DNA of 64,000 nucleotides from an uncultured Actinomycetes bacterium (GTDB lineage: Bacteria > Actinomycetota > Actinomycetes > Streptosporangiales > Streptosporangiaceae), in NCBI GenBank assembly GCA_963704995.1, contig CAVPIM010000018.1, positions 238,484 through 302,483 on the forward strand, written 5' to 3'. Within the stretch, counting starts at the first letter, position 1, and each line of letters opens with the position of its first letter. The notes beneath the pieces were generated by a model. The model did not search any database, had not been told where the DNA came from, and saw only the letters and a list, made by a program, of their open reading frames with translations. Below are positions 35,499-62,101 of the stretch, one piece after another. Position numbers and translations under genes: made by a program.

Positions 35499-36869
35499 CC
35501 ACCCAGGCCGGCGGGGCGGGAGCGCCCGCCGCCGACAGCACCTCCGAGGGCACCGAGGGCCGCGTCTACAACGTCGCCGGCGGGGACTGGGAGGAGGTCG
35601 TCCAGGCCCTGCAGGAGAGGACCGACCAGGACGACACCGGGCGCCTCGTCGTCAACATGGGCCCGCAGCACCCGTCTACGCACGGCGTGCTGCGCCTCGT
35701 GCTGACGCTGGACGGGGAGACCGTCACCGAGCTCCGGCCGGTCATCGGGTACCTGCACACCGGTATCGAGAAGAGCATGGAGTTCCGCACCTGGACGCAG
35801 GGCGTCACGTTCTGCACCCGCGCGGACTATCTCTCACCTTTCTTCAACGAGACGGTGTACTGCCTCGCGGTCGAAAAGCTGCTCGGGGTGGAAGCGGAGG
35901 TGCCTGAGCGGGCCAGCATCCTCCGGGTCCTGATGATGGAGCTGAACCGGATCGCCTCGCACATGACGGCGATCGGCACATTCGGCCTGGAGCTCGGGGC
36001 CACCACCGTGTTCCTCTACGCGGTGCGCGAGCGCGAGCGGATCCTGGACCTGTTCGAGCTGATCACCGGGCTGCGGATGAACCACGCCTACGTCCGGCCC
36101 GGCGGGGTGTCACAGGACCTGCCGCGCGGCGCTCTCGACGCGATCCGCGAATTCCTCGGGCGGATGCCGCACCAGCTTGCTGAGCTGCGCTCGCTGATGG
36201 ACGCGAACCCGCTCTACCTGGCCCGGACCAAGAACGTCGCGTACCTGGACCTGGCCGGGCTGCATGGCGCTCGGCGTGACCGGCCCGCTGCTGCGCGGCA
36301 CCGGGCTGCCCTGGGATCTGCGGAAGAGCCAGCCGTATTGCGGTTATGAGAGCTACGAGTTCGACGTGCCGACGCAGGGCACCTGTGATGCCTACGGCCG
36401 GTATCTGGTCCGGGTCGACGAGTGCGATGAGTCGCTGAAAATCATCGAGCAGGCCGCCGACCGGCTGGCCGGACCGCGGCCGGATCACGACCCGGTCATG
36501 ATCGGTGACCCCAAGATCGGCTGGCCGGCCAAGCTGGCGCTGGGCGGGGACGGTCTCGGTAACTCACCGGATCACATCGCGCACATCATGGGCCAGTCGA
36601 TGGAAGCGCTGATCCATCACTTCAAGCTGGTCACCGAGGGCTTCCGGGTCCCTGTGGGGCAGGTCTACACGGCGGTGGAGTCGCCGCGCGGCGAGCTGGG
36701 CTGTCATGCGGTCAGCGACGGCGGCACCCGGCCGTACCGGGTCCACTTCCGCGACCCGTCGTTCACCAACTTGCAGGCCGTCGCGGCCATGGCCGAGGGC
36801 GGCATGGTCGCCGACGTGATCCCGGCCGTGGCAAGTATTGATCCAGTTATGGGAGGCGTGGACCGGTAA
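35495..36869 (+). pseudogene. nuoD: NADH-quinone oxidoreductase subunit D, frameshifted (extra G in GGG at 36257-36259)
   Basis: The N-part (track ORF 35495-36349) carries [13 protein letters not shown]. The C-part (36264-36869) carries [18 protein letters not shown]...[12 protein letters not shown]...[10 protein letters not shown]. The sequence ..LDLAG|CMALGVTG.. is restored by deleting one G. Length is 1375, which is 1 mod 3. Confidence 0.9.
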
Positions 36870-37582
36870 TGGCGCTGTCGCAGGAGGCGCGCGCCCGGCT
36901 GGAGCCGGACGCCGCACAGATCATCGGCCGCTACCCGGTGCCGCGCTCGGCGCTGCTGCCGCTGCTGCACCTGATGCAGGCCGAGCAGGGCTACCTCACC
37001 GAGGACGGCATCGAGTTCTGCGCTGAGCAGCTGGAGCTGACCAAGGCGGAGGTCACCGCGGTGGCCTCCTTCTACACCATGTACAAGCACCATCCGGTGG
37101 GTGAGTACCACGTCGGCGTCTGCACCAACTCCCTGTGCGCGGTGATGGGCGGCGATGCCATCCTCGCTGACCTGCACGAGCACCTCGGAGTTGGCGACGA
37201 CGAGATGACCCCCGACGGCAAGGTCAGCCTGGAGCACCTGGAATGCAACGCCGCCTGCGACTACGCGCCGGTGGTCATGGTCAACTGGGAGTTCTTCGAC
37301 AACATGACCCCGCAGTCGGCCCGGGACCTGGTGGATGGCCTGCGGTCCGGGGCCGAGCGCATCGCGCCCACCCGCGGCGCGCCGCGGCTGTGCACGTGGA
37401 AGCAGGCGTCCCGGATCCTGGCCGGGTTCCCCGACGGCCAGGCCGCCGGGGGGAACACCGCGGGCGAACCCTCCCTGGCGGGGCTGCGGACCGCCCGGGA
37501 GCAGGGCTGGACGCCGGATCAGGGGGGCTCCGGAGAGCCGGCCCCCCGGGCCGATACAGGGACCGGGAAGGCGGCCAAGTGA
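36869..37582 (+). CDS. nuoE: NADH-quinone oxidoreductase subunit E
   Basis: Thioredoxin-like 2Fe-2S subunit with VCTNSLC and LECNAACDYAPVVMVN. TAATG overlap with nuoD. Confidence 0.9.
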   Translation: MALSQEARARLEPDAAQIIGRYPVPRSALLPLLHLMQAEQGYLTEDGIEFCAEQLELTKAEVTAVASFYTMYKHHPVGEYHVGVCTNSLCAVMGGDAILADLHEHLGVGDDEMTPDGKVSLEHLECNAACDYAPVVMVNWEFFDNMTPQSARDLVDGLRSGAERIAPTRGAPRLCTWKQASRILAGFPDGQAAGGNTAGEPSLAGLRTAREQGWTPDQGGSGEPAPRADTGTGKAAK

Positions 37583-38883
37583 CCACTGTGCTGACGCCGG
37601 AGCTCACCGCGTTCTGGGATGAGCCCGACTCGTTCACGATCGAGGCGTACAAGCGCCACGGCGGTTACCAGGCCCTGGTCAAGGCCCTGGCCTTGCCGCC
37701 GGACGAGGTCGTGCAGACGATGAAGGACTCCGTGCTGCGCGGCCGCGGCGGGGCCGGCTTTCCCACCGGGCTGAAGTGGGGTTTCATTCCCAAGGGCGGC
37801 AGCAAGCCGCACTACCTGGTGGTGAACGCCGACGAGTCCGAGCCCGGCGCCTGCAAGGACATGCCGACCCTGCTGAACAACCCGCAGGCGCTGATCGAGG
37901 GCATCGTGATCGCCTGCTACGCGATCGACGCGCACCGGGCCTTCATTTACGTGCGCGGCGAAGTGCTGCACGTGATCCGACGGCTGCACGCCGCCGTGGC
38001 CGAGGCCTACGAGGCCGGCTACCTGGGCACCAACATCCTCGGCTCTGGGTTCGACCTCGACGTGGTGGTGCACTCCGGCGCGGGCGCGTACATCTGCGGC
38101 GAGGAGACCGCGCTGCTCGACTCGCTGGAGGGCTACCGCGGCCAGCCCCGGCTCAAGCCGCCGTTCCCGGCGGTGGCCGGGCTCTACGCCTGCCCCACCG
38201 TGGTCAACAACGTCGAGTCGATCGCGACGGTGCCGTACATCCTGGGCCGCGGGGCGCAGGATTTCGCGTCCTTCGGCACCGAGAAGTCCAAGGGTTTCGG
38301 GATCTTCTCGCTGTCCGGCCACGTCACCACGCCCGGGCAGTACGAGGCGCCGCTCGGCACGACCCTGCGCGAGCTGCTGGAACTGGCGGGCGGCATGCGG
38401 GCCGGGCACCGGCTGAAGTTCTGGACCCCAGGCGGCTCGTCCACCCCGCTGTTCACCGACGAGCACCTGGATGTGCCGCTGGACTACGAGTCGGTGGCCG
38501 CGGCCGGGTCGATGCTCGGCACCCGGTCGGTCCAGCTGTTCGACGAGACCACCTGCGTGGTCCGCGTCGTGCTGCGCTGGATCAAGTTCTACGAGCACGA
38601 GTCCTGCGGCAAGTGCACGCCGTGCCGGGAGGGCAGCTGGTGGGTGGTCCAGCTGCTCGAGCAGCTGGAGCGGGGCGAGGGCAGCGAGGCTGACCTGGAC
38701 AAGCTCCTCGACATCTGCAGCAACATCACCGGACGCGCGTTCTGCGCCCTGGGCGACTCGATCGAGTCCCCGGTCAAGTCGTCCATCCGTTACTTCAAGG
38801 ACGAGTACCTCGAGCACCAGCGGCACGGCGGCTGCCCGTTCGACCCGGCCGCGTCAACGCTATTTGCCATGGAGTCCGCCTGA
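37579..38883 (+). CDS. nuoF: NADH-quinone oxidoreductase subunit F
   Basis: FMN/NADH site GRGGAGFPTGLKW and NADESEPG. The 4Fe-4S motif is ESCGKCTPCREG. GTG 37579 overlaps the nuoE stop (GTGA), and the track ORF begins upstream at 37243. Confidence 0.95.
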   Translation: MTTVLTPELTAFWDEPDSFTIEAYKRHGGYQALVKALALPPDEVVQTMKDSVLRGRGGAGFPTGLKWGFIPKGGSKPHYLVVNADESEPGACKDMPTLLNNPQALIEGIVIACYAIDAHRAFIYVRGEVLHVIRRLHAAVAEAYEAGYLGTNILGSGFDLDVVVHSGAGAYICGEETALLDSLEGYRGQPRLKPPFPAVAGLYACPTVVNNVESIATVPYILGRGAQDFASFGTEKSKGFGIFSLSGHVTTPGQYEAPLGTTLRELLELAGGMRAGHRLKFWTPGGSSTPLFTDEHLDVPLDYESVAAAGSMLGTRSVQLFDETTCVVRVVLRWIKFYEHESCGKCTPCREGSWWVVQLLEQLERGEGSEADLDKLLDICSNITGRAFCALGDSIESPVKSSIRYFKDEYLEHQRHGGCPFDPAASTLFAMESA

Positions 38884-60978: not shown

Positions 60979-61077
60979 GAAGTTAAGTGTCTAATACTCT
61001 TGACGCTTTTTCAATGGGCGTGCTGTACTGCCTGCAGCCCGGCCACCCTGACCCGGCCGGGCCCAGTGGAGGATTCG

Positions 61078-62101
61078 ATGCAGCAGGCAGACATCACCTC
61101 GATCACCCGTGAGCTGGCCGGGCTGGTCGCGGAGCGCTACGTGTTTCCCGGCCTCGCGGCCGAGATCAGCCGGCTCCTGGGCAGCCGGGACGCGGCGAGC
61201 CGGCTACGCGGCAGCCCCGGATGAGGCATCACTGGCCACGGCGCTCACCCAGGACCTCCAGTCGGTCAACGGCGACAAGCACCTGCGGCTGCAGTACAGC
61301 GCGGCCGAGCTGCCCGAACGCGGCGATGAGGCGGCCGAGGTGGCCGCCATCTCCGGCTACGCGGACCGCACAGCGCGGGGAATCGCCCGGGTCGAGCGGC
61401 TCGATGGCAACGTCGGCTACCTCGACCTCAGCCCGCTGCTGTTCCCCGCAGTCCTGGCCGGCGAAGCCGTGGCCGCCGCGATGACGCTCATCGCCCCGGC
61501 CGACGCCCTCCTCATCGACCTGCGCCGCTGCCTGGGCGGCACGCCGGACATGGTCGCCATGCTGTGCAGCTACCTGTTCGGCGACGAGCCGGTGCATCTC
61601 AACGACCTGATAGACCGGCCGGCTCCGGACGGCACGGCCGGGGTCAGGCAGTTCTGGACGCTGCCCTTCACGCCCGGCCCCCGGTTCGGGCCGGATAAGC
61701 CGGTCTTCGTGCTGACCAGCGGCACCACGTTCTCGGGTGGGGAGGAACTGGCCTACGACCTGCAGCAGCTGGGCCGGGCCACCGTGGTCGGCGAGCGCAC
61801 CCGCGGGGGCGCCCACCCGGTCGAGCGCTTCCGGATCCGCCCGCACCTGCAAGCCAGCATCCCGGTCGGCCGCGCGCTCAGCCCGGTCTCCGGCGGGAAC
61901 TGGGAAGGCAGCGGCGTTGTGCCGGACGTCGCCGTGCCGGCCAGCGAGGCCCTGGGCGCCGCCTACCAGCGGGCCCTGGATCACGTGCTCTCGCTGGGCG
62001 ACGAGGGCCCCCGGGGCGAGACAGCCGCCGAAGCGCGGCAGGCCCTGGCGGCTGGCGGCCCGGGCTTGCGTGCCCGCGAGCAGGGGAATCCGGGCCGGTA
62101 A
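61078..62101 (+). pseudogene. S41-family peptidase (C-terminal processing / IRBP-like), frameshifted near 61197
   Basis: The N-part, MQQADITSITRELAGLVAERYVFPGLAAEISRLL.., is the end of track ORF 60904-61224. The body, ..GYAAAPDEASLATALTQDLQSVNGDKHLRLQY...GYLDL...LIDLRRCLGG...LTSGTTFSGGEELAY, is track ORF 61109-62101. Length is 1024, which is 1 mod 3. Confidence 0.7.

Follow-up and report, generated by a model that had tools for sequence, protein, structure and literature searches.

The window analysed here, a stretch of 64,000 nucleotides of contig CAVPIM010000018.1 (assembly GCA_963704995.1) from an uncultured member of the Streptosporangiaceae, carries a dense series of frameshifts and one in-frame stop codon in the nuo operon for respiratory complex I, in a Liv-type branched-chain amino-acid importer and in neighbouring genes. 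We consider it very likely that these lesions are not pseudogenes but consensus artefacts, produced where strains were collapsed in a contig of a long-read metagenome assembly. The first-pass annotation of this DNA had preferred uneven long-read consensus quality to gene decay and was right to do so, as the lesions are private to this contig, contigs that are 98-99.6% identical are intact, the codon bias has not decayed, and sister contigs have lesions of their own. That reading can be refined, in that the cause appears to be a consensus made over two co-occurring strains and not simply poor polishing or low coverage, because the inserted bases are alternative alleles and, along the backbone, two lineages are mixed site by site. 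What would be expected of a strain-collapsed artefact was found in three respects: the lesions are private, their bases come from the alternative haplotype, and the backbone becomes a mosaic where the lesions set in. If the lesions are artefactual, as we think, then the organism very probably has an intact complex I and an intact Liv-type transporter.

Lesions were sought with our own frameshift-aware protein-to-DNA dynamic programming aligner and the proteins of more than 20 relatives (about 25). The open reading frames (ORFs) of these relatives were filtered beforehand by codon-position GC (GC3), because spurious ORFs are abundant at the GC content of the window, which is about 70%, the GC3 of its coding frames being 0.8-0.98. 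The alignment was run again with the called genes of close relatives, and nucleotide alignments to close relatives were added; a per-position best-frame map built from all the relatives' ORFs was dropped as too noisy, since off-frame ORFs match in DNA of 70% GC. Judged by NuoM, the nearest relative in GTDB is a Microflora Danica (MFD) long-read metagenome-assembled genome (MAG) at 86% amino acid identity, and Streptosporangiaceae MAGs and isolates come next. An exact look-up of NuoK gave contigs that are 93-94% identical to the window, namely L081, L082 and L084, which are European Nucleotide Archive (ENA) contigs with Flye-style names, L087, a megahit short-read contig, and L090, a JGI contig, while exact-protein look-ups with NuoM, NuoA, NuoE and NuoG gave no match. 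Same-lineage contigs from other samples are ENA records ERZ250394xx-5xx, again with Flye-style names. L092/L095 (99.7% identity) span positions 250-26057 of the window, L099 (98.5%) spans 25.6-36.87 kb, and L094 (99.64%, from another sample) spans 56780-64000; the Logan contigs L093, L096 and L097 are 99.8-100% identical to the window. L098 is a 120-kb contig in which nuoG-N, the liv genes and the downstream genes are mostly intact; it is 91.6% identical to L081, and the window is about 94% identical to each of the two. The look-ups found no same-strain sequence for 36.9-56.8 kb of the window, and this stretch was therefore judged against relatives of 92-98% identity.

By frameshift-aware alignment, the interval from 36.2 to 61.2 kb has at least 27 lesions of the reading frame, where the first-pass annotation had listed about 25. 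The cluster is real, but its dense part begins only at 41.9 kb; the lesion at 36255 stands alone, and 5.6 kb of clean sequence separate the two. In the dense zone (41.9-61.2 kb) there are about 1.4 lesions per kb (1.4-1.5), about 27-30 of them within 41550-61200, and the lone lesions outside it are those at 36255 in nuoD and at 2052 in a GH26-like gene. Where the direction of an indel could be resolved, there were about 22 insertions versus 7 deletions, and a single stop codon was found versus at least 27 indels. The region 2.9-36.2 kb, previously described as clean, contained no lesion, and its ORFs between 3 and 36 kb are full length when compared to Pfam profiles. Positions 1-36200 are 99.7-100% identical to L092, L095, L096, L093 and L097 and are nearly free of indels, the sole coding lesion being that at 2052; against L096 there are 0 gaps across 4595-12284. 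Between 250 and 26057 the window differs from near-identical independent contigs by four single-base indels, and of these 15425 is an error of the other contig, two are intergenic, and the one at 2052 is a true insertion of an A in the window. Beyond the last lesion, from 61199 to 64000, there is again no indel relative to the 99.6% identical L094. At 1.4 lesions per kb the chance of 33 lesion-free kb is about e^-46, and the contrast between the clean and the dense part is far beyond chance.

All confirmed lesions but the one at 44955 are absent from every aligned relative, over a range of 75% to 99.6% identity. The close contigs L094 (99.64%), L098 (98.2%) and L099 (98.5%) are without the window's lesions where they overlap it, so that no inheritance of the lesions was seen in these same-strain or same-species genomes, and L094 differs from the window by 6 indels, all within 57,223-61,198. 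The lesioned genes have no decay of codon bias, their GC3 being 0.95-0.98. The events backed by all spanning references are those at 41910-16, 42388-90 (the stop), 43630, 44955, 45456, 46026, 46175, 49854, 52886, 53664, 54176, 54743, 55092 and 55163; those at about 42660, about 42745 and 48634 have like support, but the placements by different references differ by a few to tens of bases.

In most insertions, the two alleles that relatives have at one homologous position stand in tandem, as the inserted base and the base next to it. When this was scored on alignment columns, with simulated random insertions as the null, the signature was found in 8 of 13 private one-base insertions versus 0.076-0.083 for the null (p about 1e-6 to 2e-6), and in a looser hybrid k-mer test that included L098 and L094 it was found in 16 of 25 versus 0.23 (p = 1.7e-5). 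Insertions that merely extend a neighbouring base made up only 3 of the 13 scored. In what follows, where the first-pass annotation had put a lesion at a slightly different position, that position is given in brackets as listed. On the plus strand, nuoH has a stray A at 41916 (GG[G][A]TGG; 16/16 references), both G and A being alleles among relatives, an extra T at 42660 (listed ~42658), where the T of L098 and L082 and the G of L081 and L084 are in tandem, and an extra C in its tail at 42745 (listed ~42749; CCG[A][C]TGG), where the A of L084 and L082 is followed by the C of L081. An extra C at 43630 in nuoJ (listed 43631; 13/13 references) puts the C of L098 and the G of the L081 group in tandem, and an extra G at 48634 in nuoN (listed 48631) does the same with G and T alleles. 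On the minus strand, the LivH-like permease gene has an additional base at 52886 (listed ~52880; GGC G[C][G]TG), with the C of L098 and the G of L081, and the LivG-like ATPase gene has one at 54176 (listed ~54170), with the C of L081 and the G of L098. Two further one-base insertions between parA and the glyoxalase gene, at 59497 and 59608 and probably intergenic, each have the L098 allele and then the L094 allele, and the last lesion, an extra A at 61198 (listed ~61197) in the plus-strand S41 peptidase gene, has the A of L098 and the G of L094 in tandem; this gene is intact in L094, where it codes for 340 amino acids. The insertions at 41916, 42660, 42745, 43630, 48634, 52886, 59497, 59608 and 61198 are not in homopolymer runs, and candidates for run-length errors are the lesions at 36255, 45456, 46175, 54837, 57223, 58421 and 2052. 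The one stop codon is of the same kind. An in-frame TAG at 42388-42390 in nuoH (plus strand; 17/17 references) had been explained as a change of TGG to TAG; the stop itself was confirmed but not this origin, as the near relatives L081, L082 and L084 have TAC at this codon and L098, L001 and others have TGG. Judged by these alleles, the TAG is a chimeric codon of TAC and TGG.

The backbone between the lesions was scored at 1,105 informative sites at which L081 and L098 differ. Between 40.1 and 41.54 kb, where there are no lesions, the window agrees with L098 at 118 of the 120 informative sites. From about 41.55 kb L081-type and L098-type alleles interleave near-randomly, making 437 runs over the 1,105 sites, where about 485 runs are expected for independent sites when the pure stretch is set aside; the allele switches every 2-3 informative sites, or about every 30 nt. 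The first lesion of the dense zone, that at 41916, is less than 400 nt past the onset of the blend. The whole of 41550-61200 may be described as a strain-collapsed stretch, with a per-site mix of L081-type and L098/L094-type alleles. The window also has few substitutions of its own, with 33 private sites at 41.55-48.3 kb versus 204 in L081 and 273 in L098, and 6 at 57.2-61.6 kb versus 7 in L094 and 69 in L098. A third natural lineage as the cause of the interleaving is disfavoured because it would carry its own private branch. The change of state at about 41.55 kb is seen only through the comparison with L098; at 36.2 kb the identity to L081/L082 was examined for a step, such as a chimeric join would leave where the cluster starts, and none was found.

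The window is not alone in having such lesions. In a five-way alignment there were 13 private one-base insertions in the window, 12 in L084, 8 in L081 and 2 in L082, at different positions of the same operon, and the tandem-allele signature was present in 8 of the 12 in L084 (p = 2.5e-6) and in 4 of the 8 in L081 (p = 0.003). Per kb of nuoD-N, the window has 1.29 frameshifts, L084 has 1.26, L081 has 0.65 and L082 has 0.37. The values for isolates, for short-read contigs and MAGs and for binned MFD MAGs are 0-0.29 per kb, and the greater part of this residue is an artefact of ORF extension in stop-to-stop reference proteins. The contigs of the window's lineage from other samples (ERZ25039592, ERZ25039538) end at 26,057 (L092/L095), at about 36,870 (L099) and at 56,780 (L094), and these ends are probably graph branch points between strain-specific and shared sequence. 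Another contig, L091 (ERZ25039546 contig_94449), has about 4 indels per kb in a region that is clean in the window, and its identity to the window falls from 98% to 89.6% at about 34750, the nuoB/nuoC junction, which is either a strain switch within the contig or a natural recombination breakpoint. Beyond 34.8 kb its tail is neither window-type nor L081-type, and it is of no help in defining the boundary.

These observations lead to the question of how such a consensus could come about. A probable course of events is that the contig represents one strain, with a clean consensus, up to about 36-41.5 kb, beginning in a strain-specific polysaccharide island, and that from about 41.55 to 61.2 kb the reads of at least two co-occurring strains, about 2-8% divergent, were merged into one path. 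The polisher would then pick one allele per site at about 1,100 variable sites, giving a mosaic that is present in neither strain, and at about 2-3% of the variable sites it would emit both alleles (an insertion), neither (a deletion) or a chimeric codon (the TAG). A few lesions may be ordinary homopolymer-length errors. From these patterns we infer that there were two populations of reads, and also where the errors originate, whether in the assembler or in the polisher. The source platform was most probably nanopore sequencing with Flye --meta plus Medaka, judging from the relatives and the naming of the contigs; the Microflora Danica long-read catalogue is nanopore-only and was made with Flye --meta --nano-hq and one Medaka round, with no short reads (PMC12313526).

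Several observations weigh against a strain-collapsed consensus, or limit it. About one third of the insertions are without the tandem-allele signature, given the relatives at hand, and the lesions at 36255, 45456, 54837, 57223 and 58421 are plain homopolymer or GC-context indels that simple low coverage would explain too. The lesion at 36255 is about 5 kb ahead of the start of the mosaic. The private branch of the window is larger, at 150 sites, in 48.3-54.6 kb, from which it follows that the strains mixed there would not be exactly those sampled. A star phylogeny would also interleave alleles, and on these alignments it is excluded only by the short private branch at 41.55-48.3 kb.

The alternative that survives best, though we still consider it unlikely, is a plain low-coverage or under-polished long-read consensus with random read errors and no second strain. 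The lesions at 36255, 45456, 54837, 57223, 58421 and 2052 can be taken as errors in the length of homopolymers or short runs, and L091, with its many indels where the window is clean, also fits low coverage, as does the finding that a nanopore consensus needs about 40x coverage to be nearly frameshift-free (PMC9262707). However, random errors should not copy the alleles of relatives, as the scored insertions do far above the null, nor should they yield a hybrid of TAC and TGG or coincide with the onset of a two-lineage mosaic that is nearly free of private substitutions.

A natural fine-scale recombinant of two lineages, in which only some of the lesions would be artefacts, is very improbable. 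Identity to relatives is indeed mosaic at the kb scale, and the fall in the identity of L091 suggests real recombination or strain switching in the population. On the other hand, switches about every 30 nt are close to random interleaving and are finer than the expected tracts of bacterial homologous recombination, and lesions are found exactly at switches (46026, 46303).

Least probable of all is genuine regional pseudogenisation, that is, a recent loss of complex I, the Liv-type importer and neighbouring genes. What speaks for it is that many uncompensated frameshifts and one stop are found in nuoD, nuoH, nuoJ, nuoL, nuoN and four liv genes, and that the window's private substitutions are enriched at codon positions 1+2, with a ratio of 1.26 versus 0.41-0.75 in sister contigs. 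This excess is, however, the expected product of chimeric codons, and the absence of the lesions from overlapping 98-99.6% identical contigs of other samples, the equal treatment of unrelated neighbour genes and intergenic DNA, the undecayed GC3, the great excess of indels over nonsense codons and the origin of the inserted bases in relatives' alleles all argue against decay, which would have to have occurred independently in the same essential operon in three or four contigs of one assembly type and is not credible. Mycobacterium leprae has a pseudogene-rich genome under reductive evolution, and the window resembles it in that housekeeping operons carry several frameshifts and a stop codon; it differs in that its lesions are limited to a single 20-kb stretch, do not occur in near-identical genomes and are built from relatives' alleles, with no substitutional decay. 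Programmed ribosomal frameshifting or recoding was ruled out because no shift site is conserved in the orthologues, which read through in one frame, except at 44955, where L081 and L084, both of them nanopore-style contigs, have the insertion too; a second nuo operon in decay was ruled out as well, since the operon of the window is the syntenic nuoA-N of its relatives and no site is conserved apart from 44955.

The insertion at 44955 in nuoL (plus strand, +1, 19/19 references) needs separate treatment. The 10-mer GCCGCAGATG at this position is common to the window, L081 and L084, which are three independent assemblies; L087 and L090 have the allele GCCGCGATG, L082 and L001 have the allele GCCCAGATG, and GCCGCAGATG is a hybrid of both. 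It is very improbable that this insertion is real, in which case it would be a true frameshift or a site of recoding, polymorphic among natural soil populations of Streptosporangiaceae-like bacteria; alternatively, it could be a systematic consensus artefact wherever GCG and CAG alleles co-occur. If a few of the lesions are real, this is the best candidate.

The remaining lesions of the nuo operon, all on the plus strand, are as follows. In nuoD one extra base at 36255-36257 (listed 36257-9), in a CC/GGG run, splits Pfam PF00346 (Complex1_49kDa) at profile position 88/90 across two frames; this base is absent from L081, L082 and L099, and NuoD is intact in L099 at 457 amino acids. The nuoI tail has a probable frameshift at about 43510 (43500-43515), in a variable region, where the ORF runs about 40 codons beyond the 211-217 amino acids of relatives. 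Besides the insertion at 44955, nuoL has an additional base at 45456-45457 (listed 45457-9; 19/19 references), where GGGCC stands versus GGGC or GGCC, and another at 46026-46028 (listed 46025; 20/20 references), where the L081-type haplotype changes to the L098-type; the frame shifted at 46026 is restored by the loss of one base in a polymorphic C/G run at 46175-46176 (listed 46176; 20/20 references), and three one-base insertions at haplotype switches (46278, 46303 and 46319) follow, with a net change of +3. In nuoN there is an extra T at 49854 (listed 49859-62; 17/17 references).

In the liv genes, which are on the minus strand, alignments to relatives gave the loss of one base at 53663-53664 (listed ~53650) beside a C/G polymorphic site in the LivF-like ATPase gene (5/5 references), and in the LivG-like ATPase gene one additional base in the tail at 54079, two at 54743-54744 (listed 54743) and an extra G in the start region at 54837 (listed ~54830). 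The gene for the substrate-binding protein has a compensating pair, -1 at 55092 and +1 at 55163 (listed 55161), each with 6/6 references. Downstream, a C is missing from a C run at 57223, upstream of the SDR gene and probably intergenic, where L094 and L098 agree against the window; a G is missing at 58246 (listed 58247) from a minus-strand ORF of 75 amino acids, called PLDc_N in the earlier listing, that is intact in L094 and L098; and a C is missing at 58421, probably intergenic, between this ORF and one of 97 amino acids. Comparison with the 99.64% identical L094 is what confirmed 58246 and 61198 and brought to light 57223, 58421, 59497 and 59608; the events at 46278, 46303, 46319 and 54079 came from nucleotide alignments. 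Near the start of the window, an extra A at 2050-2052 splits the minus-strand GH26-like gene (about 1437-2880) into two ORFs, this gene coding for 347 amino acids in the same-strain L095. The events at 46278, 46303, 46319, 54079, about 43510, 57223, 58421, 59497, 59608 and 2052 were absent from the earlier list, 2052 being outside the range that it covered. Conversely, a putative lesion at about 38976, at the N-terminus of NuoG, found no support, as the ORF at 38977-41409 codes for 810 amino acids, the same as the NuoG called on L098. The sequence around the other putative sites at about 44750, 43437 and 53250 is variable and poorly alignable, as is that at the nuoM/nuoN junction (48.3 kb). 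The C-terminal tail of NuoH (the 3' end of nuoH, 42600-42880) is long, of low complexity and rich in Ala, Gly and Pro, in a protein of about 485-519 amino acids in this clade, and the length of this tail, like that of the NuoI tail (43400-43520), differs among all relatives, so that lesions called in either tail are uncertain.

Known assembly artefacts resemble what is seen here in part. In strain-collapsed metaFlye unitigs and contigs, as treated for Strainy (bioRxiv 10.1101/2023.01.31.526521), a strain-resolved part likewise passes into a multi-strain consensus; the breaks of other-sample assemblies at the borders and the alleles of two lineages are further points of likeness. That literature differs in covering suppressed variation and strain-switch errors, and we found in it no description of tandem-allele insertions and chimeric stops at about 2-3% of heterozygous sites, our search for a prior description not having been exhaustive. 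Nanopore homopolymer indels (Sereika et al. 2022, PMC9262707) are similar in that indels dominate, conserved genes are split and the codon bias is intact; unlike these, the indels of the window are mostly insertions and are at polymorphic sites, a few of the deletions being in short C/G runs. The consequence is that a false lead is removed, as there is no evidence that this soil actinobacterium has lost complex I or its branched-chain amino-acid importer. It would also follow that in a long-read MAG a part of a contig can blend two strains site by site into a sequence that is found in no cell and has its genes broken at 1-1.5 sites per kb, while the adjoining 36 kb can be all but perfect, and that genome-wide quality scores will not show the blend. 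Given relatives to compare with, assemblies are enough to detect the tandem-allele signature and the missing private branch, and the signature could be used to flag strain-collapsed stretches, to avoid pseudogene calls and to target phasing or re-polishing.

As for the layout of the window, it begins with the polysaccharide island, which has two WbaP-type transferases, WecG, Wzz, two sulfotransferases, a GT2 glycosyltransferase, Wzy and a flippase, and goes on with cysQ/D/N, an S9 peptidase, menG, a geranylgeranyl reductase, nuoA-N and a polyprenyl synthase. The five-gene Liv-type ABC importer, on the minus strand, comes after the polyprenyl synthase gene and is followed by the SDR gene, the two small ORFs, parA, the glyoxalase gene, an ArsR regulator, the S41 peptidase gene and an MFS transporter. 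The island (3056-29087) has a GC3 of about 0.8, which is below that of the core genes (0.92-0.98). Its two Sulfotransfer_3 genes at 7.5-9.7 kb are accompanied by two WbaP-type priming transferases, and the island is about 16 kb upstream of cysQ-cysD-cysN, genes of sulfate activation and PAP recycling; the sulfotransferases together with the nearby cysQ-cysD-cysN suggest a sulfated exopolysaccharide. Between the Wzy-like and the flippase genes, at 12123-13215, there is a tandem array of high GC content (0.76), in which a basic period of 33 nt recurs in about 29 copies, with higher-order periods of 75, 99 and 140 nt. This array is poorly alignable with L095, a contig that is otherwise 99% identical, and its copy number is therefore either variable or mis-assembled.

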